From NCBI GenBank assembly GCA_963777155.1, contig CAVZPM010000017.1:1-30184 (forward strand): a stretch of 30,184 nt of DNA. The letters run 5' to 3'. The DNA is from Candidatus Bathyarchaeota archaeon (lineage in GTDB: Archaea; Thermoproteota; Bathyarchaeia; Bathyarchaeales; Bathycorpusculaceae). Shown piece by piece: positions 3,343 through 30,110 of this stretch; position 1 is the first letter of the stretch, and every line of letters starts with the position of its first letter. The notes under the pieces are model-generated. The model saw only the letters and a program-made list of their open reading frames with translations, had not been told where the DNA came from and made no database searches. The position numbers and the translations under genes were made by a program.

Positions 3343-4449
3343 TTACTGTGTTTTTCCCATGGGGCTTTTGCGGAGTTCCTCAATATATTTGGGGTCCTCC
3401 CGTAAAACTTTGGGTATGTAGTTGCATGCTGGGTCAGATTCGAAGAGGTCGCCAGTGTAGAATTCTGCTCGTGTTCTGCATCCGCCACAGATCTCTCTGT
3501 ATTCGCATACTCCACATCTGCCTTTGAGGTTGCTTTTATCGCGCAGTTTGAGGTGGAACTCGCTTTTTTGGAGTTGCTCCCAGGCGGTGCGTAGCTTTGT
3601 ATCTTTGACGTTGCCGATTCGGTAGCCTTCGTGGAAGCCGCAGCTTCGGTAGTCACCGTTTTCTGTGATGCCGATATAGTTGCCGCCGATGGTACATCTG
3701 CCCAAGTATCCTTCGTTGAACCAGTCCCAGAAGTCAACAGGGTTCTTCTGTTTGACTATGCGTGCGTAGAAGGGTGCGTAAACATTGACTTTGACTTTAC
3801 CATAGAGCTTGCGTTGTATGTCATAGATTTCGTTGAATGCGACTTCATATTGTTCGGAGGTCGGTGCGAGGTCTTCCATGTGTTCACCTGCCCGTCCTAC
3901 TGGCACGAGGTTGTGGTAGACAACTGAGCGGGCTTTGTATTCTTCCGCCAAAGCCGCTGTGTGTGCCATCTGGTGAATGTTATATTTAGTCATGGTTGTG
4001 ACTAAACAATCAAGTAAGCCAACGCTGGATAGTTTCTTCATGGCGTGTAGGGCTTTGTCGTAGCCACCTTGGCGTCTTATTTTGTCGTTTGTATCTTTCA
4101 TTCCATCGATGCTAATGGCTGTTTTAACATTATATTTGCGCAGTTTATCGAAGCGTTCTTCATCCCAAGCATAGCCGCTTGTGATTAGACTGACGTTGAG
4201 GTTATGCTTCTTTTCAGCGTACTCTATTATTTCCCAAATGTCCGGTCGGACTAGGGGCTCTCCCCCGCTGATTCCGAACCATTGTGAGCCGAACTCTGCC
4301 ATTTCGTCAACCATATGTTTGGCTTGTTCGGTGCTTAGTTCTTGGTCTTTAGCGTAATCTTTAATGTAACTGCAATATGTGCAAGTGCCGACACAGTTGC
4401 GAGTACACCGCCAAACAACCATAAACAAGGGAGTCGTGGTTGGATTCAT
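3343..4449 (-). CDS. Radical SAM/SPASM-domain protein (NirJ/AhbC/AhbD-like)
   Basis: CVGTCTYC motif, SGGEPL, ISIDG, PVGRA; SPASM cysteines C...C...CGVCEYREICGGCR...DPAC. Confidence 0.92.
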   Translation of the reverse strand: MNPTTTPLFMVVWRCTRNCVGTCTYCSYIKDYAKDQELSTEQAKHMVDEMAEFGSQWFGISGGEPLVRPDIWEIIEYAEKKHNLNVSLITSGYAWDEERFDKLRKYNVKTAISIDGMKDTNDKIRRQGGYDKALHAMKKLSSVGLLDCLVTTMTKYNIHQMAHTAALAEEYKARSVVYHNLVPVGRAGEHMEDLAPTSEQYEVAFNEIYDIQRKLYGKVKVNVYAPFYARIVKQKNPVDFWDWFNEGYLGRCTIGGNYIGITENGDYRSCGFHEGYRIGNVKDTKLRTAWEQLQKSEFHLKLRDKSNLKGRCGVCEYREICGGCRTRAEFYTGDLFESDPACNYIPKVLREDPKYIEELRKSPMGKTQ

Positions 4450-4756
4450 TTATTTCACAGTGGAAATAGTTTGCCCAGCTGATATAAAACTTACTCTAAA
4501 AAAATGATTATTTCCTTTTTTAAAAAAACTGCAAAAAGCAGCCCATTTTTGCTAATTAGAAGAAGAAAATGGTCTCACATAAATCGTTTCTTCTTCTCTT
4601 CAGACTTTTCTGTTGCCTGTATTTTGTTTTTTACAGCTACTACAAACTAGAGGAAGAAATTATTGTTTTTAGGGAAACCACTTTTTATTCTTTAAATTTA
4701 CTGAAAGAAAAATACGATAAAAACATGCCAACAATTTTCCCATACCTTCTACGTCT

Positions 4757-5233
4757 TTATTCGGTTAAAGCACTGGTTTTTCGTTTGCTCTGTAGCATCC
4801 CTTCTACAGCGAAAACCCCAAAAGCCAACCCCGTTATAAGAGTGAGAAGGAAGAAGAAAACTTTGAATTCACTTGTCTCAACCGCATAATGAAGGATTAA
4901 AATAATGATTTCAACGATTAAGATTGCAAGGAACAATGAGGCATAGAGCCACATCTTGGGTAACAATCGGTTGCCAACCCAAACCTGTCCCCTGATATGC
5001 GCTTTTCGTTTAACGGTATATTCACCATACTCGTTTTTCTGTAAATCTCCAAGATCTTCTAGCTTCTGCAGGTGCCTGTAGGCGACGCTGGGGCTGCTAA
5101 GTCCGACGCCTTTCATGACGTCTCGGGGACCAACAGGCTTCCCCTTATTGACAGTATACATGTATACTGCTAAGGTTATTCCTTCAAGTGCATTGTTCTC
5201 TGCAGTCGTCAAAGTTTTCTGCTCCTTAGCCAA
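4757..5233 (-). CDS. Winged-HTH protein with two C-terminal transmembrane helices (putative membrane-tethered regulator)
   Basis: GPRDVMKGVGLSSPSVAYRHLQKLEDLG HTH plus wing, followed by two hydrophobic stretches. Divergent from rnfD. Confidence 0.75.
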   Translation of the reverse strand: MAKEQKTLTTAENNALEGITLAVYMYTVNKGKPVGPRDVMKGVGLSSPSVAYRHLQKLEDLGDLQKNEYGEYTVKRKAHIRGQVWVGNRLLPKMWLYASLFLAILIVEIIILILHYAVETSEFKVFFFLLTLITGLAFGVFAVEGMLQSKRKTSALTE

Positions 5234-5370
5234 AGATAGTTTGTTGCCTACATGTATTAGGCTTTACCCAAAGCACGGTTTGCTGGCTTGGATTTGCATA
5301 TCCGCTATCTCCGAAAGAGTTTAATAGATAAGACTTTAAATAAAATTCTTCATTTGAGAAGGTTAATCAA

Positions 5371-6495
5371 ATGAGTAATCAATCACCAAACGATCTAGTT
5401 GTAAACCCAGCACCCCACATTACCGGTTCAATGTCAAAGAATCGCATGATGCAGTACACCTTTTTCGCTATACTTGCAGTAACCGTTGTTACAATCGCAC
5501 TCTGGTCAGAAGTCACCACTCCTTCAGGATGGAACCTAGGCTTAACCGTCGCCATCGGCGCACTCATCGCAGTCGGCATAGCAGTCGCAGTTGACCTATT
5601 GATCGGCAAATTAGCAGCTGATAGCGAAGTAAACACTTGGTCCGCCGGAGTATTTGGTTTAATCGTCATTAATTGTTTTACTCTCGGATTCCCATCAATG
5701 GCAATGGGACAGGAAACTGGAATACCTGTCGAAGCACCCCTCGCATTCTTCTACATCGCCTTAATATCACTCATAGGTATTGTTGTTTTCAAGAAAATTG
5801 CAGGTTTAGCAGGAAGAAAACCAGTAAACCCCGCGGCAGCAGCCAAATTCCTCGTACTACTACCAGCCACAATGACAACTCTCATTACAAGCTGGCACCT
5901 AACAAGTGGGCTCCTCAAAGTTCCATCACTGGCAGGCGGCATAGGCGCAACCATTGTTGGCAGCAACGGAGGTTCTGCAGGATATCCATCATTTGCTGGC
6001 TACCTACAAACCTGCTATAGCTTACCTACCGTAACGTCTCCGGCTAGCCTTGAATCAGTTATGCTATTGGCAAAGTATCACGGATGGGTCGGCGGAGCAA
6101 GCAGTATCGCGGTCATCGTAGCAGGTATCGCACTCTTTGTAATCGGACGTAAATACATTAAATGGAAAATCACCGCAAGTTACCTCCTCGCTATTGCAGT
6201 ACTCTCATTGACATTCTCTTTCATGTTCGGCGACGCAGACTTAACCACAAGACTATTCTTCGAACTATTCATCGGTAGCTCAATATTCATGGCGTTCTTC
6301 ATGGCCACGGATCCCGCGACAACACCCTTTAGCGGAGTCGGACAAATTATCTTCGGCGTCGGCCTGGCGGTTCTGACTATTCTGATACAAACCTTTATGG
6401 GCTTCTTTGGCGGCTCACTGCTAGCATTGCTCATCATGAACTTAACAGTCCCGCTTATTGACCGTGTTCGCATCGGCAAACCCTTCGGGAGATGA
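5371..6495 (+). CDS. rnfD: RnfD/NqrB family membrane subunit (divergent)
   Basis: PAPHI start, GRKPVNPAAAA, IKWKI, FFMATDPATTP; many TM helices; ATGA overlap with rnfC. Confidence 0.85.
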   Translation: MSNQSPNDLVVNPAPHITGSMSKNRMMQYTFFAILAVTVVTIALWSEVTTPSGWNLGLTVAIGALIAVGIAVAVDLLIGKLAADSEVNTWSAGVFGLIVINCFTLGFPSMAMGQETGIPVEAPLAFFYIALISLIGIVVFKKIAGLAGRKPVNPAAAAKFLVLLPATMTTLITSWHLTSGLLKVPSLAGGIGATIVGSNGGSAGYPSFAGYLQTCYSLPTVTSPASLESVMLLAKYHGWVGGASSIAVIVAGIALFVIGRKYIKWKITASYLLAIAVLSLTFSFMFGDADLTTRLFFELFIGSSIFMAFFMATDPATTPFSGVGQIIFGVGLAVLTILIQTFMGFFGGSLLALLIMNLTVPLIDRVRIGKPFGR

Positions 6496-7790
6496 ACAAA
6501 ATGGCAAACTTAGTTGAAATAAAAGAACAAAAAGACATTGCAAGAAAAACCCCTATCGAAATCTTCCCTGACCCAAAAATCGCAGTCGTACTCACCAACC
6601 AACAATCCGGGGCAACTAACAGTCCCCTGGTTTCTGTTGGCGACATCGTGGTCATCGGACAAAAAATCGCAGACTCCAAGGAACGCATAAGCGCACCAGT
6701 CCACAGCCCAATCAGCGGCAAAGTTATAAAAATCGCAAACGTTTTCAACAGCTGCTTTGAATACGCAACTGAAGCAATCTACATCGAAGGCGATGGCAAA
6801 AAAGTCAAAGACAAAACCCTGACTCCAATTTCTGAAGCTGAACTCAAAGACACCTCAAACGAAGTACTGCTAAAACGTATCCGCGAAGCAGGAATCATCG
6901 GAATGGGCGGCGCAGGTTTCCCAACTAGCATCAAACTGTCCATCCCCGCAGACAAGAAAATAACAACCCTGATCGTAAACGGAGCAGAAGGCGAACCATA
7001 CGACACAGCAGACGAACGCTTAATGATTGAGAAAACCGCAAACCTTGTACGTGGTGTCCGCGTCATACGCAAACTTCTGGGCAATCCCAAAGTTATCGTT
7101 GTAACCAAAGAAAGCAAAGTTGAAGCTATACCTAAACTTCAGGAAGCATTCGGTAAAGAACCAGAAACCCAAGTTATCGCAAAACACCTGACCTACCAAC
7201 AGGGCGACGCAAGTGTCCTGCAAAAAGCAATCCTTGGCTACGAGGTACCGCCAGGCAAACGCAGTTACGAAATGGGTACCATCGTACAGAACGTCTCAAC
7301 CATAAACGCGATTGCAAATGCCGTATTCGACGGTGAACCACTCATATCCAGAGTCACAACCCTTAATGGTGATGTTGCAAAACCAAAAAATCTACTGGTG
7401 AAAATTGGCACCCCGATAGCTGATATACTGAGCCAAAGCAACTTAAACGCAAAAGACATCGGAAACATAGTCGTCGGCGGAGTAATGATGGGAACCGCTC
7501 TCCAAACAATTGACGCTCCAGTAACCAAACGAACGTCAAGCATAATCTACTTCACAAAAAGCACCGTTAAAAAACTCAAGAAAGCAACAGCTTGCATTCA
7601 CTGCGGAAGATGCCTCAACGCTTGTCCAGTACGTCTACAGCCCATAGCAATCTACAACGCAGTAACGAAGGGCGACTTCGCAAAAGCTGAAAAACTCTGG
7701 GCCAAAGACTGTCTAGTATGCGGAACATGCTCGTTTGTCTGTCCATCACGACTGCCCCTAGCTAGCACCATCAAGATGGCGCGTCAATAA
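6492..7790 (+). CDS. rnfC: RnfC/RsxC family flavin-Fe-S NAD(H) oxidoreductase subunit
   Basis: VHSPISGKV, GIIGMGGAGFP, NGAEGEPY, GGVMMG, and two 4Fe-4S motifs (CIHCGRCLNACP, CLVCGTCSFVCP). Confidence 0.9.
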   Translation: MNKMANLVEIKEQKDIARKTPIEIFPDPKIAVVLTNQQSGATNSPLVSVGDIVVIGQKIADSKERISAPVHSPISGKVIKIANVFNSCFEYATEAIYIEGDGKKVKDKTLTPISEAELKDTSNEVLLKRIREAGIIGMGGAGFPTSIKLSIPADKKITTLIVNGAEGEPYDTADERLMIEKTANLVRGVRVIRKLLGNPKVIVVTKESKVEAIPKLQEAFGKEPETQVIAKHLTYQQGDASVLQKAILGYEVPPGKRSYEMGTIVQNVSTINAIANAVFDGEPLISRVTTLNGDVAKPKNLLVKIGTPIADILSQSNLNAKDIGNIVVGGVMMGTALQTIDAPVTKRTSSIIYFTKSTVKKLKKATACIHCGRCLNACPVRLQPIAIYNAVTKGDFAKAEKLWAKDCLVCGTCSFVCPSRLPLASTIKMARQ

Positions 7791-7796
7791 AGAACT

Positions 7797-7966: not shown

Positions 7967-8627
7967 TTGGAAGAAAACAAATTCAAGTTATCGGACATCT
8001 TCGGCGGCATTATTATTCCAATGATTCTAGTAATTCTAATTTATGTTCTTGCGGTTTACGTTAACGTTGGCGGACAACACCATGTTCTTCGGTGCAACAA
8101 ACACGATCGCGGTCATTCTCGTTAACGGCTTTGCAGAAATGATTATTCTCGGTATCCCATTGGTTTTAGGCTTGCTATGGAATAAATGGGCAGGTGGAGC
8201 TGCAGGCTTCATCATGGGCGGCCTCTATTACGTAGCGCAAGCAGGTCATTATAACGCAATTTATGCAGGTGCAGGAGTAACTACTTACAACTTCTTTGGT
8301 GACATCAGTATGCTCTACTGGATTGTCTACGGTGTTATCATTGGCTACATGGCTGGCGCACTCAACAATGGATCTACAACCTTCAAACGAATGCTCCTCT
8401 CAGGTTTGACTGCTTCGGTGATAGTCTCAGTACTCAAAGCTTACTTGAATTACACTATCTCGCTTGCACCCGCAAGACAGATGGCTCAAGACTCTTGGAC
8501 ACAAGATCCAGTGTTGGCTGTCGTAACTAATTTTGTGCCATTAATTGCATTAGGCGTAATCGTACCGATACTCGGCAAAGTAATGACCTGGTATGGCATT
8601 CAGCCTCAAAGGCATTCAGCCTATTAA
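7967..8627 (+). CDS. Integral membrane protein, ECF S-component-like, copy 1 (one +1 frameshift near 8089)
   Basis: TTG at 7967 gives MEENKFKLSDIFGGIIIP...GGQHHVL, matching copy 2, then an extra base shifts into ORF 8043-8627. Gly-rich TM motif LGLLWNKWAGGAAGF. Confidence 0.7.
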
Positions 8628-8967: not shown

Positions 8968-9619
8968 TTGGCAGAAAACAAAATTAACCCATCAATAATC
9001 TTCGGCGGCATTATCATTCCATTAATTTTAGCATTACTTATCTATGTTCTTGCGGTTTACGTCAACGTTGGCGGACAACACCATGTTTTGGGTGCGACAA
9101 ACACGATCGCGGTCATTCTCGTTAACGGCTTTGCAGAAATGATTATTCTCGGTATCCCATTGGTTTTAGGCTTGCTGTGGAATAAATGGGCAGGTGGAGC
9201 TGCAGGCTTCGTCATGGGCGGCCTTTATTACGTAGCGCAAGCAGGTCATTATAACGCACTTTATGCAAGTGCAGGAGTAACTACTTACAACTTCTTTGGT
9301 GACATCAGTATGCTCTACTGGATTGTCTACGGTGTTATCATTGGCTACATGGCTGGCGCACTCAACAACGGCTCAACCAACTTTAAACGACTGATTGGCG
9401 CAGGTTTGACTGCTTCGGTGATAGTCTCAGTACTCAAAGCTTACTTGAATTATACTATCTCGCTTGAACCCGCAAGACAGATGGCTCAGGACTCTTGGGA
9501 CAGTAGATCCAGTGTTGGCTGTCGTAACTAATTTTGTGCCATTAATTGCATTAGGCGTAATCGTACCGATACTCGGCAAAGTAATGACCTGGTATGGCAT
9601 TCAGCCACAGAGGCACTAA
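8968..9619 (+). CDS. Integral membrane protein, ECF S-component-like, copy 2 (one +1 frameshift near 9499)
   Basis: Near-identical to copy 1. An extra G in tcttgggacag shifts the frame; the corrected end reads DPVLAVVTNFVPLIALG...WYGIQPQRH*, with TAA at 9617-9619. Confidence 0.7.
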
Positions 9620-9716: not shown

Positions 9717-11022
9717 TTATTTTGTTTGGTTAGGCGCAAACTCCCAAGCTATGTTGCCCTTCCAGAGTTCACCTTTCTTAGTTAACCGAATTTCTTTGTC
9801 GTCAATCTCGATCAATTCCTGTTCCTTAAGTTTCTGCAGTTGCTTTGGAAACACCTTTTCTGGGGTGGTGCTAAATTTCTCCATGAATTCTTTTTTGCTA
9901 ACTGGCAATCGTAGGTATAATCGTGTCATGGTTCTGCGCATCATATCTTCAGTTGTTGACTCGGAGAGTCTGCATATTGGAAGTTTTCCAGACTTCACAG
10001 TCTCCATGTAATCGTTTATGTTTTCAATGTTGGAATAGGAGAATTTCTGAAGGTACCCCATGAAGCAGCCTGCGCCCGTAGTTAAGATGCCTCCCCATGG
10101 CCAACCGTTGAGACAGTTTTCACGCATGTGCCATTCAACACGACTGTAACGGTCGTGACCTACTGCTTTGTAGCCTGCATCGGTGAGCATTTTGTGAGCG
10201 GTTATGAACATTTGCTTCTCGTTCTCAGCATCGCCTTGCGGTGGTGAGGTACCATTTTTAATCATTTTCTCTAAAATTGTTCCAGGATCTACATGTAATG
10301 AGTAAGCGTCAACTTCTGCATCTAACTCGATTGTCTTCTTAAGTGTATCTACCCAACTTTCCATTGTCTGCCCTGGCAGATTATACATGAGATCAACGCA
10401 GACCACTAATCCAAGTTTTCTTGCATGCTTTATGGCTCTCTCGACATCGACAGCGTTGTCGGGCAAGCACAATGCTTTGCGAAGTTTGTCGTCGAAGGTT
10501 TGTGCACCCATGTCCATCTGGTAGACGCCGTACTCTGCCAACTTGTCGATTTTTGGAAGTGCCAATGTCTTTGAGGACCCGGTGACTTTGATGAAGTATT
10601 CTTTGCTTGTGTTAAAGTTAGCTTTGCAAAAATCAATTAAATCAATTATTTGTTCCGCGCAAAGCACGCTTGGGGTTCCGCCGCCCAAAACTATTTCGTC
10701 AAACACGCTTGTCTTAACGTACTTGGTTTTAGCGTACATGGCAAGTTCTTTTTTGAGCAAGTCAAGGTAGGATCCAATCTGCACCTTGCTTGATGCAGTG
10801 GTCGGGAAATAGCAAAATGCACACCTACTGTCGCAAACCGAAACCCACGGTTGCAAGCTCCATTAAGCGGCCTGAAGTATTCTCGGTATCTAAGAATTTC
10901 ATGAAGGCTTCGTATGTTTCAGGTTTTATGCCTGGGTAATCCCTGTATGTGTAAGGCGGCCAGTTTTCCCGTGAATCATAGGCTTCTGACTTGCCTTTTT
11001 CAGGCTCAGAGGCTTTTTTCAT
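9717..11022 (-). CDS. HemN/coproporphyrinogen III oxidase-like radical SAM enzyme (one +1 frameshift near 10854)
   Basis: ORF 10825-11022 (WPPYTYRDYP...GRLMEL) joins 9717-10856 (QPWVSVCDSRCAFCYF, GGGTPS, GAQTFD, DLMYNLPGQT, HemN C-terminal RLTKKG). Confidence 0.85.
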
Positions 11023-11250: not shown

Positions 11251-12663
11251 CTAATGGTGTTGAAGGCTGGCTTTGATTCGCCAGAGGTTATAATTTAGTG
11301 CTGTTCTTGCCATGATTTTGCTATACAGGTTGCCTTTCAAGTACCCTTTAGCTGCTTCACGCATTATGTACTTTGGAGAGTAGAACCTGTTGTAGAATCG
11401 TTTTCTTATTTGAGTTATTTCTGATACAGGCAGATTTGGGTCTTCAAAAGTGGGATTCATTGTATTATAAAGCTTCCAATTTTCCGTCATTTTCCAACCG
11501 TTTTTTTTCACCAATTCGCGCAGGGCAGTACCCGGGTAGGGTGTTGCATAGCAGAGCCAAACATCATCAGGTTCAGCTTTGCGGACAAAATCTAAAGTTT
11601 CTTGCAGTGTTTCTTTTGTTTCACCTGGATAACCCAGAATCACTGATACGGTAACGAACATACCTGCTTCTTTTGCCCATCTAATTGCATTATCACAATG
11701 TTCGTTCGTAACTCCTTTCTTTAGTACATTGCGCATTTTCTGGCATCCTGATTCAACTCCGAACATAATTTCATTACATTTTGCCTTAGCCATTTTTTGA
11801 AGGATTTCTCTTGTCACGATATCTGCTCGCGTTCCACATCCCCATGGCAGGTTAATTTTTCTCTCAATTATTCCATCGCATATTTCCATGGTTCTTTTCT
11901 TGTCAAAAGTTAATGTATCATCTTGGAATGCTATTCCTTCAGCACCATATTCATCTCTTAGCCACTCAAGCTCGTCGAGAACGTTTTTTGGGCTTCTGGC
12001 TCTGAACTTTGACCCAAACATTTCAGAGGCTACGCAAAAAGAACACTGAAAGGGGCATCCCCTGCTTGTTATTATGGAAAGAAGTTTTCTTCCAGCAATC
12101 CAGTACTTTTCGATAGGCACAAACCTGTAGGCTGGACGTGGTAGGGCATCAAGGTTTTGGATGAAGGGGCGTGTAGGTGTTTGGAATATCTCGTTTCCTT
12201 TCCTAAAAGTTATTCCCTTGATATCGCCGATTTTCTGCATGCTTGTCGACTGCTGGGCAAGTTCAAGGAGGGTTTCTTCTCCCTCACCCCTCACTATAAT
12301 ATCGACTGATTTCTCATCTTTTAATATCTGTGCGTCTGCAAATGTTGCGTGTGATCCCCCCATAACTACTTTAGAGGTCGGGCAAACTTCTTTGGCTGCA
12401 CGAGCAGATTCGAATGCTGAATCAACCGTAGACGTCATGGAGCCTATCCCAACTATTGTTGGTTGGAACGCATCTAATTCGGCCTTAAGTTTCTGAGGAC
12501 TAATTTTGCATACTGGACAATCAAAAATTTTTACCTCAAAATCGTTCTCATCTAGTACAGCAGCAATGTATGCCAATCCAAGCGGTGGAAAAATTGGGTG
12601 GTGACCCATTTCTTCCATGTAGGGTGGAGTAACAAGCGCTATTTTATTTTTATTTGCCGTCAT
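11251..12663 (-). CDS. Cobalamin-dependent radical SAM enzyme (subtype C)
   Basis: B12 domain PLGLAYIAA...GGSHAT...GEGE; TSRGCPFQCSFC; FGVESG; TPYPGT. Confidence 0.93.
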   Translation of the reverse strand: MTANKNKIALVTPPYMEEMGHHPIFPPLGLAYIAAVLDENDFEVKIFDCPVCKISPQKLKAELDAFQPTIVGIGSMTSTVDSAFESARAAKEVCPTSKVVMGGSHATFADAQILKDEKSVDIIVRGEGEETLLELAQQSTSMQKIGDIKGITFRKGNEIFQTPTRPFIQNLDALPRPAYRFVPIEKYWIAGRKLLSIITSRGCPFQCSFCVASEMFGSKFRARSPKNVLDELEWLRDEYGAEGIAFQDDTLTFDKKRTMEICDGIIERKINLPWGCGTRADIVTREILQKMAKAKCNEIMFGVESGCQKMRNVLKKGVTNEHCDNAIRWAKEAGMFVTVSVILGYPGETKETLQETLDFVRKAEPDDVWLCYATPYPGTALRELVKKNGWKMTENWKLYNTMNPTFEDPNLPVSEITQIRKRFYNRFYSPKYIMREAAKGYLKGNLYSKIMARTALNYNLWRIKASLQHH

Positions 12664-18801: not shown

Positions 18802-18882
18802 TTATATTGTACAGCATCGGGCGTTACAGGTGCTGGTTGCCCGCCAAGACGTCATCAGTAAAGGACCTTTTTTATCTGTCAA
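18802..18882 (-). pseudogene. 5' remnant (26 codons) of a radical SAM/SPASM gene
   Basis: Translates as LTDKKGPLLMTSWRATSTCNARCCTI*, versus LTQKGPLLMTSWRSTGACNARCKYC in 12849-13978. The upstream aaaa(a/g)gattgtgcg motif is also shared. Confidence 0.85.
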
Positions 18883-18997
18883 ATAACATCCATCCTTTTG
18901 TTTCGTCTTAAAAAAGATTGTGCGGTTCGGAGAAATTTGTGGTTCTGGAAGAATTATGCATATTTCAAGCCAATTTCAGAAAAACACTGTTTTCCGC

Positions 18998-21714: not shown

Positions 21715-23139
21715 CTAAGCTATTCCAACCCTTTTTGGAGCATTTGGATTCAACCTTCTCTTGGCAAAATTCACAACGCCCTCGCGTCTAATTCGCTTCA
21801 CGATTTGTTTGGGCGTCATGTTGAATTCTCGGAAGAACCGCCTTTGAACAGCCATAAGCGAGTTGAAATCGTACTCTTCGGTTTTGACGGCTAACAAGAA
21901 CTCGTCGAGTTTATCGTATTTTTTGGATTCTAAAACTTCTTGGTAGAGCTTGCTGTCTGGATTAGCGATGAAGACGTTGAATAGGCACCAGTCAGGGTTC
22001 AATTTTTTAGCAAACTTCAGTGAAGCTTCCATGTCCTCTAACGTTTCATCAGGAACCCCAAGCATGAATGAGCAGGCGGTTTGTATCCCGTTTTTGCGGC
22101 AGAGCTTAAACGCGTTCTCTATCTGTTCCAGTGTTGTGTCTCTTCCGATGCGCTTTAGAATTTTCTGCGAGCCAGATTCAACCCCGAACCAAATAGTTTT
22201 GCATCCAGCCTTCTTCATCGCTGCCAAAAGCTCCTGATCCACTAAATCCACTCGAGTGTCACAGACCCACTCTAAATCCAGCTTGTTTTCAACCATTAAG
22301 AGACATAATTCAAGGGTTTCTTTTTTTCTGAGTGTAAAGTTGTCATTAATGAAGTAAATTCCTTTTGTGCCGTATTTTTGTTGTAGGTCTTGGATTTCTT
22401 TGATAATTCTTTGTGGACTGAAGCCTCGGCAAATGTTACCCCAGAGCTTGCGTGTTTCGCAGAAACCACAATGGAATACGCATCCTCGTGCGATGCTCAT
22501 GACGTCGGCTGGTTTAACGTTAAGGTATTCAATAGTGCGATCGTAGAGTTCAAGCGGCAATAAGTGCCTGGCGGGATATGGGATTTCGTCCAGGTTCTCT
22601 ATGAAGACAGGTGGGTTTTTGATGTTTGCTCCTGCACGCCTACACGCAACCCCTGGTATTGTGATAGCAGCTGGTTCATTGTTGTTTACAATGCATCGGG
22701 CAAGGTCGGTTACTGCTCTTTCGCCTTCACCCATGACCACATAATCAATCTCTGGGTTCTCAAGCAAACTATCGGGTACATAGGAAGCATGCCATCCTCC
22801 CACGACTATTTTGCATGTTGGAAGGGCTTCTTTGATGGCACGAGCGGTTTCTATGCATCGCCGGTAAGTGGCTGAACCGCAAGTAATGCCGACGATTGCC
22901 GGGTTAACTTTAACAATTAATTCTTTGACTTCCTCAAGCGGTTTCTTCATAAGGTAGTTATCGAGCATCTGCACCGCAAAACCCTCTTTTTCAAGAGCAG
23001 AGGCGACATACATCAAACCGATTGGAGGCAACCGTTTCCCCAGGTACCATGCGCCGTTTTCAGGGGGCGCCGTAGTCATAAGAAGGACTGTGTTGTTTTT
23101 GACCAAGTCGGCATCATTGTTTTTGGGTTCGGCGGGCAC
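21715..23139 (-). CDS. Cobalamin-dependent radical SAM enzyme (subtype B)
   Basis: PIGLMYVAS, GGWHAS, GEGE, ARGCVFHCGFCETRKLWG, FGVESG. Paralog of 25712-27076. Confidence 0.93.
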   Translation of the reverse strand: MPAEPKNNDADLVKNNTVLLMTTAPPENGAWYLGKRLPPIGLMYVASALEKEGFAVQMLDNYLMKKPLEEVKELIVKVNPAIVGITCGSATYRRCIETARAIKEALPTCKIVVGGWHASYVPDSLLENPEIDYVVMGEGERAVTDLARCIVNNNEPAAITIPGVACRRAGANIKNPPVFIENLDEIPYPARHLLPLELYDRTIEYLNVKPADVMSIARGCVFHCGFCETRKLWGNICRGFSPQRIIKEIQDLQQKYGTKGIYFINDNFTLRKKETLELCLLMVENKLDLEWVCDTRVDLVDQELLAAMKKAGCKTIWFGVESGSQKILKRIGRDTTLEQIENAFKLCRKNGIQTACSFMLGVPDETLEDMEASLKFAKKLNPDWCLFNVFIANPDSKLYQEVLESKKYDKLDEFLLAVKTEEYDFNSLMAVQRRFFREFNMTPKQIVKRIRREGVVNFAKRRLNPNAPKRVGIA

Positions 23140-23185: not shown

Positions 23186-23269
23186 AGTTTATAGCTTTAG
23201 CGGATTGCAGTTTGGATAAAGGTTTGCAAGTGTCTTTGCTGTTTTTGGATAAATGAAAAGGTTTATAGT
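23186..23269. promoter_or_regulatory. Back-to-back divergent TATA boxes
   Basis: Minus-strand aaagctataaact (23186-23198) and plus-strand aaaaggtttatagt (23256-23269). Confidence 0.5.
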
Positions 23270-23306
23270 CACTTTAGACGCATTTCCAAACCAAGAGGGA
23301 ATCGAG

Positions 23307-24014
23307 ATGAAAGTTGTCGTCCATTGGAGCGGGGGCAAAGAATGCTGTTTAGCTTACCACAAAGTTATCAAACAGGGTCATCAAGTTGCTTGCCTTCTTA
23401 GCTTCGAATATCAAAGACCCTACATTTTCCACAGTTTTCCTATAATGGAACTTCAATCTAAAACTCTTGGCACTCCCCTCAAGGTTGTTAGAGTAAAGAA
23501 AGCCTACGAAGACATCTTGGGCGCCCTGACAAAACTCAAATCAGAACAAGGCATTGAAGGCATAGTTACTGGCGACATAGCTGGAGCGGGATGCGCCCTA
23601 GTTCACTCAAGCTACTACGAGAGTATGGCTAAACAGCTGGGTCTTGCTTTCATGATGCCAAATGAAGGCGACACATACGACGTCCTCAAAGAAGTCGTTG
23701 GCACTGGCCTCCGCCCTGTCTTAAACTGTGTTAACACAAACTTTTTTGGTGAAGAATGGCTGGGGCGAAAACTCGACCCCGAGTCAGTCAAAGAATTGAA
23801 GGCATTGGCCGACGCAAAAGACATAGATGTCGCAAGCGAAGACGGACAGGGTTATCATAGCACGGTAGTTGAGGCGCCACTCTTCAAAGAATCCATCGTC
23901 ATCGGCAAGTACAAAACTAAAAAGAAGAAAGAAAAAGCGAAAAATTGGAAGCGCAACTGGCTTTATATGGACATCAAAGAGTGCTCTCTGCACCCTAAAC
24001 AAGAGTCCCAATGA
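23307..24014 (+). CDS. DUF71/COG2102 (diphthine-ammonia ligase-like) ATP pyrophosphatase, copy 1
   Basis: MKVVVHWSGGKEC PP-loop, GIVTGDI, EEWLGRKLD, EDGQGYHSTVVEAPLFK. Start placed at ATG 23307 because the ATG at 23253 lies upstream of the TATA box. Confidence 0.85.
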   Translation: MKVVVHWSGGKECCLAYHKVIKQGHQVACLLSFEYQRPYIFHSFPIMELQSKTLGTPLKVVRVKKAYEDILGALTKLKSEQGIEGIVTGDIAGAGCALVHSSYYESMAKQLGLAFMMPNEGDTYDVLKEVVGTGLRPVLNCVNTNFFGEEWLGRKLDPESVKELKALADAKDIDVASEDGQGYHSTVVEAPLFKESIVIGKYKTKKKKEKAKNWKRNWLYMDIKECSLHPKQESQ

Positions 24015-24260: not shown

Positions 24261-25682
24261 GTGAAGACCATGAAAACTCGCATAACCCTTGTAAATCCGC
24301 CGTACCCTGCTGGTTCTCATCAGCATCCGCCATTTATGCCTCTGGGCATTGGATACTTAGGTGCGGTACTGTACAAGAATCATTTTGAAGTAAACGTAAT
24401 TGATTGTCAAGCACAAAAGATCAGTTATCAACAGTTCAGAGAAGAAATCGCCAAGTATAAACCAGATATAGTCGGTGTCACTTCCACAACACTAACCTAC
24501 AAGTCAGCCCTGAAAATAATAAAAACAGCCAAAGACGTCTTTCCAGACTGCGTAACCGCCATCGGCGGTCCCCACGTCACGTTCTGGGATGACAAAGCTT
24601 TGCAGGAAGCACCATCATTGGACATCGTTATAAGGGGTGAGGGCGAGCAAACGATACTTGAACTTGCGCAAAGAGTGGAAAATCACCAATCCTTCCACGA
24701 CCTTATCGGCACGACTTGTCGGAAAGATGGCGAAATTGTAAAGAATCCTGACCGCCCCTTCCTGGAAAACCTCGATAGCCTACCGTTCCCAGCACTTCAT
24801 CTATGGGAAAAACTAGGTGAGATACGCAAATACGGAACTATACCCTACCCAGTCATGACTAGTAGAGGATGTGTGTACTGGTGCAACTTTTGCACTGCAG
24901 TTAGAATGTTTGGCAGAAAATACCGCATGCGCAGCCCAAAGAACGTCGTCGACGAAATAGAATATCTTCACAAAAACTACCATGCAAACCAATTCACTTT
25001 CTATGACGACGCTTTTACTGTGGATCAAGCAAGAACCGCCGAGATCTGCGACGAAATCCAACGCCGTGGACTTAAAATTAAATGGGACTGTGAAACCCGC
25101 GTGGACATGGTCAGCAAGGAACTCTTCGTCAAAATGCGTAAAACAGGGTGCATAGCGGTTTGGTTTGGTGTGGAATCTGGCTCAAAGAAGCAGTTAACCA
25201 GTATGGGCAAAGGCTTCAACCTAAACCAGACAAGGCGAGCTTTCAAATGGGCAAAAGAAGCTGGGCTAATGACTGTTGCAGGCGTAATCTTGGGCTTCCC
25301 GGGAGAGACAAAAGAGAGTGCTTGGGAAACCATACGTTTCGTGAAGGAGCTTAACCCAAACGACGTAGGCTTTTACATAGCCACGCCCTACCCGGGTACG
25401 CCCATGTATGAGGAAGTTAAAGCCAATGGATCATTGAAAATAACCGACTTCGACAGGTACGATACCGCCACCCCGACCTTTGAGATTCCAAACATGACCA
25501 TGCAGGAACTCGCTCAAATTCGCGAACAAGCCTTCCAAAGCTTCTACCTGAGCCCAAGATACTTCATTAGCGCAATAGGTATGTTCAAGAAAGGAAAAAT
25601 GTGGGGGCTGGGCGCAACACGACTCATAATGGCACATTTCCGAAGAGCACTAATGGCTAAAATAAGCAGCCCAGCTAAATAG
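24261..25682 (+). CDS. Cobalamin-dependent radical SAM enzyme (subtype A; start may be ATG 24270)
   Basis: PLGIGYLGA, GGPHVT, GEGE, TSRGCVYWCNFC, FGVESG, TPYPGTP. Confidence 0.93.
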   Translation: MKTMKTRITLVNPPYPAGSHQHPPFMPLGIGYLGAVLYKNHFEVNVIDCQAQKISYQQFREEIAKYKPDIVGVTSTTLTYKSALKIIKTAKDVFPDCVTAIGGPHVTFWDDKALQEAPSLDIVIRGEGEQTILELAQRVENHQSFHDLIGTTCRKDGEIVKNPDRPFLENLDSLPFPALHLWEKLGEIRKYGTIPYPVMTSRGCVYWCNFCTAVRMFGRKYRMRSPKNVVDEIEYLHKNYHANQFTFYDDAFTVDQARTAEICDEIQRRGLKIKWDCETRVDMVSKELFVKMRKTGCIAVWFGVESGSKKQLTSMGKGFNLNQTRRAFKWAKEAGLMTVAGVILGFPGETKESAWETIRFVKELNPNDVGFYIATPYPGTPMYEEVKANGSLKITDFDRYDTATPTFEIPNMTMQELAQIREQAFQSFYLSPRYFISAIGMFKKGKMWGLGATRLIMAHFRRALMAKISSPAK

Positions 25683-25711: not shown

Positions 25712-27076
25712 TTGATTCTTCTGATGACCACTACCCTCCCTGAGAAGTCACCTTGGGGTATGGCAGGAAAACTTGCTCCATTGGGTTTAGCCTATGTTGC
25801 TTCGGTGCTGGAAAAAAACGGTTACCCAGTTGAGATTTACGATAATTATCTTTTGGGGAGACCCTTCGAAGAGGTTAAAGCTGAAATTAGAAAGCGGCAA
25901 CCCGAAATTGTGGGTATAACCTGTAGTAGCCTGACTTATTCGCGGTGTATAGAGTTAGCTAAAACCGTCAAAGAAGCATATCCGTCTTGTAAAGTTATTG
26001 TCGGTGGTCCCCATGCATCATACATGCCTGAAACCCTACTGCAGCACAGTGAAGTTGACTACGTAGTTGTCGGTGAAGGCGAAGCAGCGATAGTGAAGCT
26101 TGCAGCCAGTATTCTTAAAGGTGACTCAAAAGGTGTTTCGGTTGCCATTCCAGGGGTCGCATGCAAAATCGCTGGCGAAATTGTCAGAACTCCCCAACAA
26201 TTCATCCTCGACTTAGATACAGTTCCTTTTCCAGCGCGCCACTTATTACCCATGAAAATGTATGACCGCACCCTTCCTTACATCGACGTTGAACCTGTCG
26301 ACACCATGAGTATCCTCCGAGGTTGCCCGTACCAATGTACGTACTGTGAGACACGCGAGTTATGGGGGACCAGTTGCCGGGCATTTTCGCCCCAAAGAGT
26401 CATCGATGAAATCAAAAACATGATGCAGAACTATGGCACTAAAGGCATCTATTTTGTCGGCGACAACTTTACCATAAACAAGAACCGCACAATTGAACTC
26501 TGCCGTAAAATCAAGGAAAACAAGCTTGACCTTAAATGGACCTGCGAAACCCGCGCAGACCTCGTAAACAAAGAAGTACTCTCAGAAATGAAGTCAGCGG
26601 GATGCCAAACCATTTTCTTCGGCACCGAATCTGGGTCAGAGCGGATCCAGCAGAGACTTGGCAAAAACGTCGACCTCCAAGAAGTTAAACGTACCTTTGA
26701 GCTTACCCGCAAGGTCGGAATAAAAACAGCTACCTCTTTCATGCTTGGAATCCCAGGCGAAACTGTAGAAGACATGTATGCCACCTTCAAGTTCGCCAAG
26801 AGCCTAAACGCTGATATCTGCATGTTCAACATCTATATTGCGTGCCCTGGTAGTAAACTCTACGACGAGGTAGTAAGCCAGCGTCTCTACGACCAAATGG
26901 ACAACTACCTTGCCCGAGTCAAAACTTCAGACTTTGACTATGACATGCTTGTCAAAATTCAAAAAGAGTTTCAGGCAAGTTTTCGGAAGTCTATGGCATC
27001 AAACCTGATTCGTGTGATCCGTCAGGAAGGCATCGGAAGCGCTGTTAAAAAAGGCGCCAAACTAATATTCCATTAG
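25712..27076 (+). CDS. Cobalamin-dependent radical SAM enzyme (subtype B; true start possibly ATG 25696 with one extra base)
   Basis: PLGLAYVAS, GGPHAS, GEGE, LRGCPYQCTYCETRELWG, FGTESG. Confidence 0.93.
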   Translation: MILLMTTTLPEKSPWGMAGKLAPLGLAYVASVLEKNGYPVEIYDNYLLGRPFEEVKAEIRKRQPEIVGITCSSLTYSRCIELAKTVKEAYPSCKVIVGGPHASYMPETLLQHSEVDYVVVGEGEAAIVKLAASILKGDSKGVSVAIPGVACKIAGEIVRTPQQFILDLDTVPFPARHLLPMKMYDRTLPYIDVEPVDTMSILRGCPYQCTYCETRELWGTSCRAFSPQRVIDEIKNMMQNYGTKGIYFVGDNFTINKNRTIELCRKIKENKLDLKWTCETRADLVNKEVLSEMKSAGCQTIFFGTESGSERIQQRLGKNVDLQEVKRTFELTRKVGIKTATSFMLGIPGETVEDMYATFKFAKSLNADICMFNIYIACPGSKLYDEVVSQRLYDQMDNYLARVKTSDFDYDMLVKIQKEFQASFRKSMASNLIRVIRQEGIGSAVKKGAKLIFH

Positions 27077-27387
27077 ATAGGCACTTCGAGGACTCTAAGA
27101 ATATCCACGTACGCTTTAGGTGCCAACTTCTCATCGGTCACATTCTTTATCAGCATTCGTCCCCCATCAAAAAGGCTGACTTCCATCTTTAGATAGTCAA
27201 AAATCACCAACATCGGCGCTTTAACTCGGATTTTAATTTTCTGTTTCTTTATTTTTTCGCACGCCTGTTCCATACTGAACTTTACTTGGGGCGCTGGAGT
27301 TATGTCGGCGGTTGTTCCACCGCAGATCCAAGCAATATTCAAGGTCAAGTTGCCGACAACTTGTTTCTGCTGCGACGTATTCTTCAA
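27073..27387 (-). CDS. Small protein resembling the C-terminal domain of long ThiF/MoeB adenylyltransferases; 5' end uncertain
   Basis: WICGG...ITP...MLVIF...EVSLFDGGRMLIKNV.DEK.A..AY resembles the LCGR...LF.DGR.LI.G...A..Y tail of such enzymes (recalled pattern, not searched). Confidence 0.5.
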   Translation of the reverse strand: MKNTSQQKQVVGNLTLNIAWICGGTTADITPAPQVKFSMEQACEKIKKQKIKIRVKAPMLVIFDYLKMEVSLFDGGRMLIKNVTDEKLAPKAYVDILRVLEVPI

Positions 27388-27667: not shown

Positions 27668-27727
27668 TTTTTCTCGACTTAACTAATAGGTTCTTGAAAG
27701 AAGAAGGATAGACCTTGTCGAGAAAAA
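27668..27727. repeat. Inverted repeat with perfect 11-bp arms and 38-nt spacer
   Basis: tttttctcgac (27668-27678) / gtcgagaaaaa (27717-27727). Confidence 0.6.
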
Positions 27728-27800
27728 ATGATGTTGTTTTCTTCTTCTCGTCAATGTCCTAAAAATGCGGCATTTGGATTTAAATTCTATATTGTGCTTT

Positions 27801-28548
27801 CTAGGTGACTGACTTTTCTTCTTTGGGTCTGAGAATTGCCTCTTCGATGTCTAGGTAGAGGAAATCACCTTCGCGGAAGGGTGAGCCGCCAAAATCGACC
27901 ACTTTGCTTTTCTTGGTGTACTTGGTTAATTCGACGCGTTGCTGGAAAAGTGGTGCATCGAGGGTTGTGGAGTGGTATTCTCCGGGTTCGCCTGAAACAT
28001 CAATGCCTTTACCTGCTGGACCCACGAGCGGTTGCATGTCTTCGATACATTTTCTGTCAATTTGGCGTCCCAGCCACTCTGGAGTGAAGTATCTTTGGTC
28101 TATGCAACTTAGAATCGCTTTCACTCCGGTTGTCTGTTCCATTTCCATGATTCGTTTGCGGCGTCGGTTGCCCGGAATCAGGTTCAGTGGGCGGTCCCAA
28201 AGCGGCATCATAAGCTTGTACTCCGAGTTTTTTGCAGGCGTCTTTCCAGACTCGTCGATGGTGGACGTTGTCGATGTCGCCTGTGACGATGGCCTGTGCG
28301 CCTTTTTCTTTGTGGAGCCTTTCAAGGGTTCCCATTATGTCGTCGTAGCGGTTATCGGTAATTTTAACGAATTGGTGTGGCATACCCAAGGCTTTGACTT
28401 GTTGTTCTATGACTTTGAGACTGTGGAAAACGTAGGGTTCCATGTAGATGTAAGTGACAAGGGAAGCGACTTCGTGTCCCTGCTCGACAACTTTGTGCAA
28501 CGCGGTGCAACAGTCTTTTCCTCCGCTCCAGTGAACAATAACTTTCAA
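27801..28548 (-). CDS. DUF71/COG2102 (diphthine-ammonia ligase-like) ATP pyrophosphatase, copy 2 (one +1 frameshift near 28218)
   Basis: MKVIVHWSGGKDC, AIVTGDID, then the second frame continues KLMMPLWD...PEWLGRQID...DVSGEPGEYHSTTLDAPLF. Confidence 0.85.
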
Positions 28549-28630
28549 ACTAAATCAACATCCAATGTCTCGTCTGAACCTGTTTGATGAGGGATAATCA
28601 TTCCCGCATATAAGCGTTTTAGGAATTGCG

Positions 28631-30110
28631 TTAGCTTTGTTGGTCTTTGCTGGGTGTGCTGTGTCCACCTGGGCTCTGCTTTACTCGTCTCACCTTGCCC
28701 AATTGCCTAAACGCCCATCGTGTGAAGCGGTATTTCCAGACGAGGTGGTTTAGTGCCATGCGCGCCATGATTTGGCTGTGGAAGTCTCCCCGGCGCCTCA
28801 TCCTGAGGTAGTAAGTTGGGGTAAAGACGCTATCGTAGACGGCTTTTTTGGTTGCCTCAAGTTTCGGAAGCGGCAGAAGTTTATTTTCGAAAACCTGCAT
28901 CTGCTCATGGTAGCGGTTCCAGTCTTCGCTCATGGGCAAGCCAAGTTTTCGAACGTAGTCAGCGAGCTCCGTGCCGGGGTAAGGTACAGCTTCGCACATG
29001 TAAACGTAGTCAGGTTTGGTTTTGCGGATAAAGTCCACGGTTTGCTGGAGCATCTCAGGGGTTTCGCCTGGGTATCCGATAACAAGTGATATGGCTACAA
29101 GGATACCTGCATCTTTCACCATCTTTATGGCTTTAGCGTTCTGCTCAACGGTTGTGCCCTTCCGCATAATGTTTAACAGTTGTTGGCTACCCGACTCCAC
29201 GCCGAAGTGGATAAGCTGGCAGTTGGTACTCTTGAGTTTCACCAGTAATTCTTTGGATATTCGATCTACTCGTGTTCTGCAATCCCAAGGAAGCAAAAAA
29301 CCTCTGGTCTGCATCTCATCGCAGATTGCTATTGCCCTGTTTATGTCATGGGTGAACGTGTCGTCGTAGAATGCAAACGCGCCTGCCCCAAAAGTGTCCC
29401 TTAGCCACTCGAGTTCATCGACAACTTTGCTCGGGCTTCTGGCCCTAAACCCGTTGCCACACATCTTTGACGCCAAGCAGAAAGCGCAGTTAAAGGGGCA
29501 TCCTCGGCTGGTGATTATGGGCATGTAGTTTTTGCCGTTGATTCTGTAGCGGGTCATATCGAAGAGATGGTGAGCTGGGCGAGGAAGAGAATCGATGTCT
29601 TCAATGAATGGTCTGTCGGCTGTAGCCACTACTTTGCCATTCTTCTTGAAAGTTATACCTAAAACACTGTTGAGGTTCTAGTTTACTCTCTGATAATAGG
29701 CTTGCGAGTTCCAGTATCGTCTGCTCTCCTTCACCGCGGACAACAATATCTACGTCTGAACTGTCGGTGAATGTGCGCTCATCCAAGACTGTGACATGTG
29801 GTCCACCAATCATTGTTACGCAGTTGGGAAGCGCAGCTTTGGCAGCTTTCAATATTTTAAGCGCCGGAAAATAAGTCACGGTTGCCGTAGTTACGCCAAT
29901 TATGTCGGGGTTGAGGCTTCTGAACTTGTCCTCCATCTCCTGTTGGCTTGGTCGATTAACCTGACAATCAATCACATCCACCTTGTACCCCTTTTCCTCA
30001 AGAACCGCCGCCAAGTAGCTAATGCCTAATGGGATGAAGACGGCTTGAGGGCACATCGTCTGGATAGGTGGATTTGCAAGGACTACGTGAGCTTTCACTT
30101 GTTTTCCCAT
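28631..30110 (-). CDS. Cobalamin-dependent radical SAM enzyme (subtype C; one +1 frameshift near 29678)
   Basis: ORF 29601-30110 (PLGISYLAA, GGPHVT, GEGE) joins 28631-29629 (TSRGCPFNCAFC, FGVESG) through the corrected NLNSVLGITFKKNGKVVAT. Confidence 0.9.

Follow-up and report, generated by a model that had tools for sequence, protein, structure and literature searches.

The stretch analysed here (the window, 30,184 nucleotides (nt) in all) is the complete contig CAVZPM010000017.1, here C17, of a 39-contig, 2.29-Mb metagenome-assembled genome (MAG; 90.6% complete, 3.8% contamination) of a Candidatus Bathyarchaeota archaeon. It carries an array of genes for B12-binding radical S-adenosylmethionine (SAM) enzymes (B12-rSAMs), interleaved with two genes for DUF71 ATP pyrophosphatases. 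This neighbourhood is real, conserved and modular, and its link to cobamide salvage is the best-supported clue to function. We propose, at a probability of roughly one in three, that the B12-rSAM arrays of the region are physically tied to cobamide salvage and act on a corrinoid-type substrate. The proposal rests on the gene families present, on the conserved modules, on a lack of detectable de novo genes and on the ancestry of the DUF71 proteins.

A five-gene core and its recurring neighbours

Proteins of the window were assigned to families with Pfam and the curated cut-offs of NCBIfam. The six B12-rSAM genes of the window are termed B12_1 to B12_6, and a seventh, B12_7, lies beyond its right end. 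DUF71_1 (23253..24014, + strand) encodes an intact extra copy of the PP-loop ATP pyrophosphatase family (PF01902) with the motif EDGQGYH. To its right lie B12_4 (24261..25682, +; 473 amino acids (aa)) and B12_5 (25712..27076, +; 454 aa), both intact, and orf104 (27073..27387, −), the gene for a small conserved protein whose Cys22 is invariant in the alignment and whose structural model has a mean predicted local distance difference test score (pLDDT) of 93. DUF71_2 (27801..28548, −) encodes the second PP-loop ATP pyrophosphatase. A preliminary description of this DNA, made from its letters alone, had reported two DUF71 genes, and both are indeed present; the first is intact and the second is frameshifted at ~28216 relative to contig C28 of the same MAG, its 248-aa product being intact on C28 and on contig C22.

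Conservation was assessed in 46 species-level loci with a DUF71_1 orthologue, drawn from a scan of species representatives. Neighbours within ±10 kb of DUF71_1 were counted if identity reached 50% or more across 40% or more of the query; 35 of the 46 loci have full ±10 kb flanks. Forty-two loci are assigned to Candidatus Bathyarchaeota or Bathyarchaeia, and the four under other names are probably mis-binned. B12_4 was found in 44/46 loci, B12_5 in 39/46, orf104 in 37/46 and DUF71_2 in 36/46, and DUF71_1–B12_4–B12_5–orf104–DUF71_2 is a tight core. Next in frequency came B12_7 (27/46), B12_3 and CbiB (26/46 each) and Amidohydro_3 (18/46), followed by a tandem-Lrp protein (15/46), B12_6 and a β-propeller (12/46 each), the radical SAM (rSAM)/SPASM gene SPASM2 (11/46) and B12_2 (8/46). 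Rarest were B12_1 (7/46), a HemN-like rSAM (6/46) and a membrane protein family, TM (5/46). A cbiB–B12-rSAM operon and an RnfD–S-component-like–HemN-like module, in which TM is the S-component-like protein, are frequent neighbours of the core.

Orthologues of DUF71_1 with at least 79% identity occur in 7/18 same-genus genomes of one draw. A 300-genome draw across the class yielded ten genomes with orthologues of at least 63% identity, all from one family (by genus 4/14, 4/4, 1/6 and 1/1). The complete metK-to-orf104 order is retained in one same-genus genome, and another genus has DUF71_1, propeller, SPASM2, B12_1, HemN-like, TM, a short RnfC-matching piece and RnfD, in that order; the divergent SPASM2–propeller pair is kept in two genera. 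The TM family has a wider range, with members in 29/48 and 7/12 genomes of two families and in 0/240 others drawn, and B12_7 orthologues occur in 28/48 and 6/12 genomes of the same two families. Fifteen of 20 TM loci hold RnfD and/or RnfC, TM and the HemN-like gene together. The other grouping, TM with Amidohydro_3, is seen in five of the 20, four of them also with a B12-rSAM, and in some same-genus genomes B12-rSAM, S-component-like TM and Amidohydro_3 make up an alternative module. cbiB directly adjoins B12_7 in 20/30 loci. In the second family, the neighbours of B12_7 orthologues are two other B12-rSAM genes instead of cbiB, indicating that B12-rSAM arrays exist outside the family of the window.

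The region therefore consists of several modules of differing phyletic range, conserved within one Bathyarchaeia family. Synteny across Bathyarchaeia, one of the checks that the preliminary description had called for, places the genes in a conserved neighbourhood whose sub-clusters recur in three further genera. Nor is the gene order a product of chimeric assembly: from base 1 on, C22 and C17 are collinear, and the same-genus genome mentioned above has the metK-to-orf104 order. The picture of a self-contained factory is not supported, as the modules differ in range, metK reads as a housekeeping gene and RnfDC is an orphan pair.

These same features raise the question of whether there is a single pathway here at all. 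The region could be a plastic hotspot that has collected independent modules and paralogues (RnfD–TM–HemN-like, SPASM2–propeller, the DUF71/B12-rSAM core and cbiB–B12_7) by duplication and rearrangement. The differing ranges and an order shuffled between genomes are consistent with this, as are structural variants, remnants and duplicated junctions, the alternative pairings in 5/20 TM loci and the second-family B12_7 genes that have other B12-rSAMs at their sides rather than cbiB. However, the adjacency of DUF71, propeller/SPASM2, B12_1, HemN-like and TM genes is kept between two genera at 51–80% protein identity, and B12_7 lies 4–13 kb from the TM gene in both families that have them. We consider a hotspot without a common pathway unlikely.

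Cobamide salvage and the DUF71 lineage

Genes of cobamide salvage surround the array. Past the right end of the window, C28 and C22 continue with Amidohydro_3, B12_7, CbiB, tandem-Lrp proteins and an MFS transporter, and on C28 the run Amidohydro_3, B12_7, CbiB belongs to the window's own haplotype. CbiB exceeds two NCBIfam cut-offs (275 vs 273 and 243 vs 166). CbiZ is encoded ~6 kb beyond metK on a sibling contig, C27. In a closed genome of the same genus, genes for a class I/II aminotransferase, a MobA-like nucleotidyltransferase and CobS come after the cluster, and the first two may be CobD- and CobY-like, respectively. Contig C38 of the MAG groups CobS, a weak CobT-like match, a further DUF71 and an EcfT-type gene.

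Two sets of neighbours of these genes were noted in addition. Beside cbiB on C22 (9676–10653, 10792–11805 and 14048–15106) lie genes for three proteins of 325–352 aa, each with two Lrp/AsnC units in tandem, and one of them (dLrp3) is the tandem-Lrp protein that recurs in 15/46 loci. We rejected these proteins as siroheme decarboxylases AhbA/B, for which they score 23–36 bits against cut-offs of 125–140, compared to 72–93 bits for Lrp/AsnC models. Upstream of the metK end, C27 has a terminase large-subunit gene (1–1461), perhaps from a prophage, and a region (7180–8534) with fragments of a corrinoid protein and an MtrH-like methyltransferase.

Genes for making the corrin ring were sought in the 90.6%-complete genome, with positive controls in known genomes. 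TP_methylase gave a single match, CbiC none and the CobB/CobQ GATase_3 domain no convincing one (best 25.6 bits); a ThiC/BzaF-type gene was likewise missing from the genome. With TP_methylase represented only once, no siroheme route is evident, and we presume that this one protein is Dph5. The lack of a detectable corrin pathway in a genome with 24 B12-binding-domain matches implies strong dependence on external corrinoids. The organism thus appears to salvage cobamides and to have unusually many B12-dependent proteins. Of the three candidate substrates put forward in the preliminary description, an imported corrinoid or tetrapyrrole has thereby gained independent support, from cbiB, CbiZ, the DUF71-B12 ancestry described below, an S-component-like fold and the missing de novo pathway.

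DUF71 proteins offer a second line of evidence. The work of de Crecy-Lagard et al. (PMC3541065) divides the family into Dph6, the sole characterised DUF71 enzyme, which amidates a protein-bound residue, and a DUF71-B12 subgroup, whose genes cluster with btuCDF (75/102) or cbiB (18/102) and in which the signature ENGE[F/Y]H replaces the Dph6 motif EGGE/DxE. There, a role of DUF71-B12 in pseudo-B12 salvage was offered as a prediction (2012). Neither island protein qualifies as Dph6: they score 102 and 112 against a cut-off of 197, and their motifs are not EGGE/DxE. The bona fide Dph6 of the MAG is encoded on contig C25 (275 bits against the same cut-off; motif EGGEIE), and the copy beside CobS on C38 reads EGGEYH. 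Relative to ENGE[F/Y]H, the island proteins retain YH while the rest has drifted, to EPGEYH in DUF71_2 (invariant in 28 orthologue sequences) and to EDGQGYH in DUF71_1. The clustering typical of DUF71-B12 is seen through cbiB, which lies within ±10 kb in 26/46 loci.

A maximum-likelihood tree of 16 rows places DUF71_1 and DUF71_2 in sister clades (support 93/92) and the two together as sister (88/90) to ENGEYH proteins of other families; its two long outgroup branches are unreliable. One of the ENGEYH proteins of that sister clade is encoded next to CobS, a MobA-like transferase and an ECF S component. Judged by these sequences, the island DUF71s appear to descend from the DUF71-B12 salvage subgroup, through a lineage that duplicated into two divergent paralogues. 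They resemble the DUF71-B12 clusters described in PMC3541065 in being extra copies besides Dph6, in clustering with cbiB and in having YH in place of the Dph6 xE. They differ in that there are two highly conserved paralogues, each co-operonic with B12-rSAM genes. The term 'radical SAM' does not occur in the main text of that paper (0 occurrences), so this pairing appears not to be described there. A literature search by title and abstract returned no later assay of DUF71-B12 function, and one for rSAM enzymes in cobamide remodelling, judged by titles and the opening lines of abstracts, gave nothing relevant. We also considered DUF71 as a replacement for CbiA/CbiP in de novo synthesis and dropped this idea in favour of salvage, as the genome is without ring-synthesis genes.

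How might these parts work together? Corrinoids would be imported, perhaps with the S-component-like proteins as carriers, alongside CbiZ, CbiB, CobS and the CobT-like gene encoded nearby or elsewhere. On a corrinoid-type substrate, the two DUF71 ATP pyrophosphatases of the island would activate a carboxylate, and the co-operonic B12-rSAMs would methylate or rework that substrate, its lower ligand or its nucleotide loop. The outcome would be the cobamide form that the many B12 enzymes of the cell require. We infer the substrate of the rSAM enzymes, each of these chemical steps and any role of RnfD/RnfC in supplying reductant. Rather more tentatively, we suggest that a tetrapyrrole-auxotrophic archaeon re-tailors salvaged corrinoids by means of B12-rSAMs and duplicated DUF71 ATP-dependent ligases, which would be a new kind of cobamide remodelling.

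One of the closest known arrangements is the anaerobic benzimidazole lower-ligand operon, with BzaC, BzaD and BzaE, which PMC11697101 cites. There, too, B12-binding rSAM methyltransferases stand beside cobamide nucleotide-loop genes, and a SAM methyltransferase gene adjoins B12_3 in the closed same-genus genome. By contrast, the locus studied here lacks a ThiC/BzaF-type gene, has many more rSAM paralogues and includes DUF71, and its B12-rSAMs score 102–144 for BzaD against a cut-off of 450.

Several points weigh against corrinoids as the substrate. BchE and HpnJ models score higher than BzaD, which together with those low scores leaves orthology to a lower-ligand methylase unsupported. The salvage role of DUF71-B12 is itself only predicted in PMC3541065, and co-location with salvage genes could reflect the supply of cofactor to enzymes that act on something else. 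Archaeal B12-rSAMs, one of them from a Bathyarchaeota MAG, have been found experimentally to modify tetraether lipids, as reported in the 2025 preprint 10.1101/2025.10.20.683597. The DUF71 core is patchy (7/18 and 4/14 same-genus genomes), compared to 14/14 for TM and B12_7. It is not evident what the propeller, SPASM2, HemN-like and RnfD/C genes would do in cobamide chemistry. The S-component-like fold comes from a model of pLDDT 70, with Z scores of ~10 that fall under the alignment tool's caution line for helical bundles.

Radical SAM genes and the lipid and peptide alternatives

Pfam and NCBIfam agree with the preliminary description on the families and places of the rSAM genes: six B12-rSAM, two SPASM and one HemN-like. 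Its count of nine full-length genes has to be lowered to six uninterrupted ones as assembled, with SPASM2, B12_6 and the HemN-like gene each carrying a single frameshift. The motif CX3CX2C is present in 10/10 rSAM proteins checked (the five intact B12-rSAMs of the window, SPASM1 and the C22 copies of B12_6, B12_7, SPASM2 and the HemN-like protein), and PF02310 and PF04055, which together mark class B rSAM enzymes, score above cut-off in the six window genes and in B12_7. The enrichment in rSAM genes is real, as 15 of the 24 B12-binding-domain matches of the genome fall on C17, C22 and C28, and the locus accounts for about half of the genome's non-redundant B12-binding-domain genes. Mutual identity among the seven B12-rSAM paralogues is 30–55%, and each has orthologues in other genera; the paralogues are old.

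Outside the core, intact B12-rSAM genes are B12_1 (11251..12663, −; 470 aa; PF02310 and PF04055), B12_2 (17336..18772, +; 478 aa; not in C22) and B12_3 (21715..23139, −; 474 aa), whose product is 53% identical to that of B12_5. SPASM1 (3343..4449, −) is an intact rSAM/SPASM gene of 368 aa (PF04055 and PF13186), with CX3CX2C at residue 19. The interrupted genes are B12_6 (28631..30110, −), split into two open reading frames (ORFs) and intact at 493 aa in C22 and C28; SPASM2 (12849..13978, −), likewise split in two, with an intact form of 359 aa in C22; and the HemN-like gene (9717..11022, −), of class C type with PF04055 and HemN_C, whose intact form in C22 has 427 aa. As assembled, the HemN-like ORF spans 9717–10856 and begins right at the cluster motif, with 48 N-terminal residues displaced.

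Contigs from four public sequencing runs were aligned to window positions 10200–30184 as a check on these breaks; none of the runs contained at least half of the window's sequence words, so the source sample is not among them. A 1-nt insertion at 10854 breaks the HemN-like gene and is missing from 4/4 other runs, and a 1-nt insertion near 13504 breaks SPASM2 and is missing from 3/3 covering runs. In B12_6 the break is a 2-nt deletion (TC) at 29676, and TC is present in 3/3 covering runs. The three breaks are thus either private to C17 or consensus/assembly errors, and at the population level the rSAM genes are intact. In-frame stops or split genes are also found at these loci in many related MAGs, suggesting that assembly indel errors may be common in such records.

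Besides the full-length genes, the two rSAM remnants noted earlier are there. One is the C-terminus of a B12-rSAM (16835..17212, −; 52% to the B12_6 C-terminus by tblastn). The other, upstream of the propeller gene prop2, is a SPASM2-like 5′ piece (18814..18924, −) that matches residues 3–39 of the N-terminal part of SPASM2 at 51% by tblastn, with its small ORF kept in nine loci; it is the trace of a duplicated SPASM2/propeller junction.

Variation at the locus extends to its copies within the MAG. Nucleotide identity between C22 and C17 is 66–95% by block; C22 lacks the 16.6–20.5 kb insert of C17 and has all its genes intact. C28 matches the final 5.6 kb of the window at 98.6% identity and runs on past its end, and C27 holds a third copy of the metK end. 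There are, in sum, two to three collinear versions of the locus in one MAG, and C17 and C22 share their start base. Such multiplicity suggests co-binned strains and inflated paralogue counts. Most simply, the MAG is at this locus a composite of close strains, of which the window represents one variant; a true segmental duplication would be another way to account for it.

None of the B12-rSAMs of the window reaches the NCBIfam cut-off for BchE (best 247/481, by B12_1), HpnJ (235/578), BzaD (144/450) or MgmA (TIGR04014; 147/360), and the six further B12-rSAMs of the genome likewise reach no such cut-off. Membership in the AhbC/D, NirJ, HemN and ChuW types, all named in the preliminary description, fared no better. 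SPASM1 is AhbD/NirJ-like yet under every curated cut-off (AhbD 203 bits against 500, NirJ 150/515, AhbC 148/650). The truncated window copy of the HemN-like protein scores 180/400 for ChuW-HutW (HutW), 152/205 for HemW and 128/325 for HemN, despite having the rSAM and HemN_C domain architecture. SPASM1 and SPASM2 share the rSAM and SPASM architecture of AhbC/AhbD/NirJ and PqqE, and their best matches are AhbD/NirJ models and PqqE; they differ from AhbC/AhbD/NirJ in scores far under cut-off and in the absence of an evident siroheme route.

The preprint 10.1101/2025.10.20.683597 describes archaeal B12-rSAMs that methylate, cyclise and desaturate tetraether lipids, and this activity makes lipid tailoring a serious rival. 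The B12-rSAMs of the locus would then act on archaeal ether lipids (by methylation, cyclisation, desaturation or backbone methylation), with salvage genes nearby since the enzymes consume B12. According to that text, Grs, Gmm, Cgm/Pgm and Ted act on glycerol dialkyl glycerol tetraethers, Ted comes from a Bathyarchaeota MAG and is clustered with grs, and MFS transporters occur in 56% of cgm/pgm neighbourhoods. The grs, gmm, cgm/pgm and ted-hgs clusters resemble the locus in gene content, with several clustered B12-rSAM paralogues and an MFS transporter nearby, as in the C22 extension. The better NCBIfam matches of the B12-rSAMs include models for HpnJ, HpnR and ladderane lipids, all below cut-off. 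One caveat here is that NCBIfam gave no discrimination, either as a finder of lipid-type B12-rSAMs or as a separator of DUF71 subgroups; Grs, Gmm, Cgm, Pgm and Ted are absent among the NCBIfam families listed for these proteins (the best 25 per window protein; E ≤ 1e-30 for the others). In contrast to the lipid clusters, the locus has cobamide salvage genes and DUF71, and no recognised lipid-pathway gene or AttH-like hydratase was detected in the window, in the C22 extension or in the 50-kb region of the closed genome. Lipid tailoring also leaves the two extra co-operonic DUF71 copies and the cbiB–B12_7 operon unexplained. On balance, we judge it an unlikely function of the locus.

A protein or peptide substrate was considered as well. 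B12-rSAM C-methyltransferases and DUF71 amidoligases could modify a residue in a ribosomally synthesized and post-translationally modified peptide (RiPP) or, much as in diphthamide formation, in a protein, possibly orf104 or the propeller. The precedent is Dph6, whose substrate residue is protein-bound (PMC3541065, main text). ApyD and RiPP C-methyltransferase models appear among the matches, all below cut-off, and the second-best solved relative of B12_4 is 9ccb, a code that appears in a paper on the methyl-coenzyme M reductase glutamine methylase MgmA. The product of orf104 is small and conserved and has its invariant cysteine. Its fold is TBP-like, but Foldseek matches to TBP are weak (E 0.06–0.2, TM-score ~0.55) and no function could be derived from them; a predicted complex of DUF71_2 with orf104 scored 0.00, which in a prediction run without controls is evidence neither way. 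Against this reading, the locus has no protease, leader-recognition or export gene, and its DUF71 copies appear to come from the B12-salvage lineage and not from Dph6. Among 38 small intergenic ORFs tested as precursor peptides, none was kept in more than nine of the fetched loci, which are from close relatives, though very short or unusual precursors could escape such a test. These data make a peptide or protein substrate very improbable.

Propeller, membrane and supply genes, and the meaning of the locus

Two surface β-propellers had been described in the window, and one of them stands. prop2 (19121..21700, +) is intact and encodes an 859-aa surface-anchored protein with PQQ-like β-propeller repeats (PQQ_2 and Beta-prop_ACSF4), a signal peptide, a PT-rich linker and a C-terminal transmembrane helix. 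prop1 (14228..16590, +) is a broken PQQ-like propeller gene, with fragments in all three forward frames and no long ORF. Compared to an intact 824-aa orthologue of another species, it shows 85% nucleotide identity and 44 frameshifting gaps of one or two bases; the adjoining B12_2, compared with the same species, shows 97% identity and 0 gaps. Window positions 14124–17213 are a 3,090-base presence/absence polymorphism, as in contigs of datasets X2 and X6 position 14123 is followed by 'AA' and then directly by 17214; near-zero depth of X1 over 14.2–16.9 kb was not counted, and only the X2 and X6 joints were taken into account. Whether prop1 decayed into a pseudogene or was left unpolished in the assembly, it is not a working gene. 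The 14.1–17.3 kb stretch, ORF-free and richer in G+C, was also searched for rRNA and tRNA, with 0 Rfam matches and 0 ARAGORN genes.

The propellers bear on a further alternative, in which the locus serves chemistry at the cell surface or the breakdown of lignin and humic matter: SPASM2 would mature the exported propeller or make its cofactor, and the rSAM enzymes would transform plant aromatics, as proposed for Bathy-6 (we do not assume that the present genus belongs there). The divergent SPASM2–propeller pair conserved in two genera fits this scheme, and the best solved relative of SPASM2 is PqqE (6c8v, E = 3.8e-16). In its main text, PMC11697101 reports Bathy-6 MAGs with many exported PQQ-domain proteins, a PqqE-like gene and 7–20 B12-rSAMs each, and suggests a role in lignin use. 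On the other side, prop2 scores 128 against 480 for PQQ-dependent dehydrogenase (TIGR03075), matching only PQQ_2/BamB-like repeats; SPASM1 scores 120.6 against 381 for PqqE, and SPASM2 was scanned as its two window fragments only. No PqqA-like conserved small ORF was found, and just 12/46 loci have a propeller within ±10 kb of the DUF71 core. We regard this alternative as improbable.

At the left of the window, metK (3..1211, −) runs off the contig end and encodes a bacterial-type SAM synthetase (S-AdoMet_synt N/M/C in Pfam). Its presence near the array is as described before, and its reading as a dedicated SAM supply is not: copies of metK occur solely on the variant contigs C17, C22 and C27, the archaeal-type AdoMet synthase PF01941 has no match in the genome, and metK, as the sole SAM synthetase found, reads as a housekeeping gene. 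The left flank of the window also has GPN-loop GTPase and DUF4443 genes (Pfam), which is consistent with an archaeon. orf158 (4757..5233, −) encodes a putative winged-helix regulator, with a weak LexA_DNA_bind match. On contigs C10, C16, C34 and C8, paralogues of orf158 adjoin further propeller or B12-rSAM genes and may point to a common family of regulators.

A divergent RnfD/NqrB-family membrane protein (5371..6495, +; PF03116 136 bits, TIGR01946 99 against a cut-off of 207) and an RnfC-type NADH/FMN/2x[4Fe-4S] subunit (6492..7790, +; TIGR01945 405.6 against 246) are encoded further to the right. Pfam and NCBIfam confirm both genes, but not their proposed role as a self-contained reductant supply, the pair being an orphan without RnfA/E: PF02508 found nothing in the 90.6%-complete genome, with a positive control in four known genomes (the search covered RnfA/E and not RnfG or RnfB). 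Likeness to the RnfABCDGE complex thus extends to an RnfC that reaches its subfamily cut-off and an RnfD that matches its Pfam family. The difference lies in the conserved partners of rnfD, which sits next to genes for an S-component-like protein and a HemN-like rSAM. In many relatives, only ~70 aa matching RnfC remain between rnfD and the TM gene.

The TM genes of the window, TM1 (7967..8627, +) and its tandem paralogue TM2 (8968..9619, +; 91% nucleotide identity), encode ECF S-component-like membrane proteins. Each has one frameshift, and the intact forms in C22 have 219 and 216 aa, respectively. The earlier label 'ECF-S-like' finds support in the modelled fold, not as a function. VIA-align placed S components or BtuM in all of the top 16 rows for the TM1 model (Z 10.2–7.7, below the tool's caution line for helical bundles), and the leading Atlas match was Thia_YuaJ (0.88). 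TM1 aligns with PanT, RibU, ThiT, BioY, FolT and BtuM at a root-mean-square deviation of ~3–4 Å over 130–147 residues. Unlike known ECF S components, the TM proteins have no S-component match in Pfam or NCBIfam, carry an extra N-terminal helix and are not encoded next to EcfT/EcfA, with EcfT-type genes on other contigs.

Expanded families of B12-rSAMs and PQQ-domain proteins have been remarked on before, without explanation, in PMC11697101, whose consulted sections describe no cluster of this kind. The present locus links about half of the non-redundant B12-binding-domain genes to cobamide salvage in a genome without a detectable corrin pathway, and it offers a concrete five-gene core and a candidate function for the DUF71-B12 family. 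If salvaged corrinoids are indeed re-tailored here, B12 enzymes would shape their own class of cofactor, and the orphan DUF71-B12 family would have its first function. Should lipids prove to be the substrate, the cluster would be a source of new biomarker-forming enzymes. Either way, it is suited to heterologous expression.

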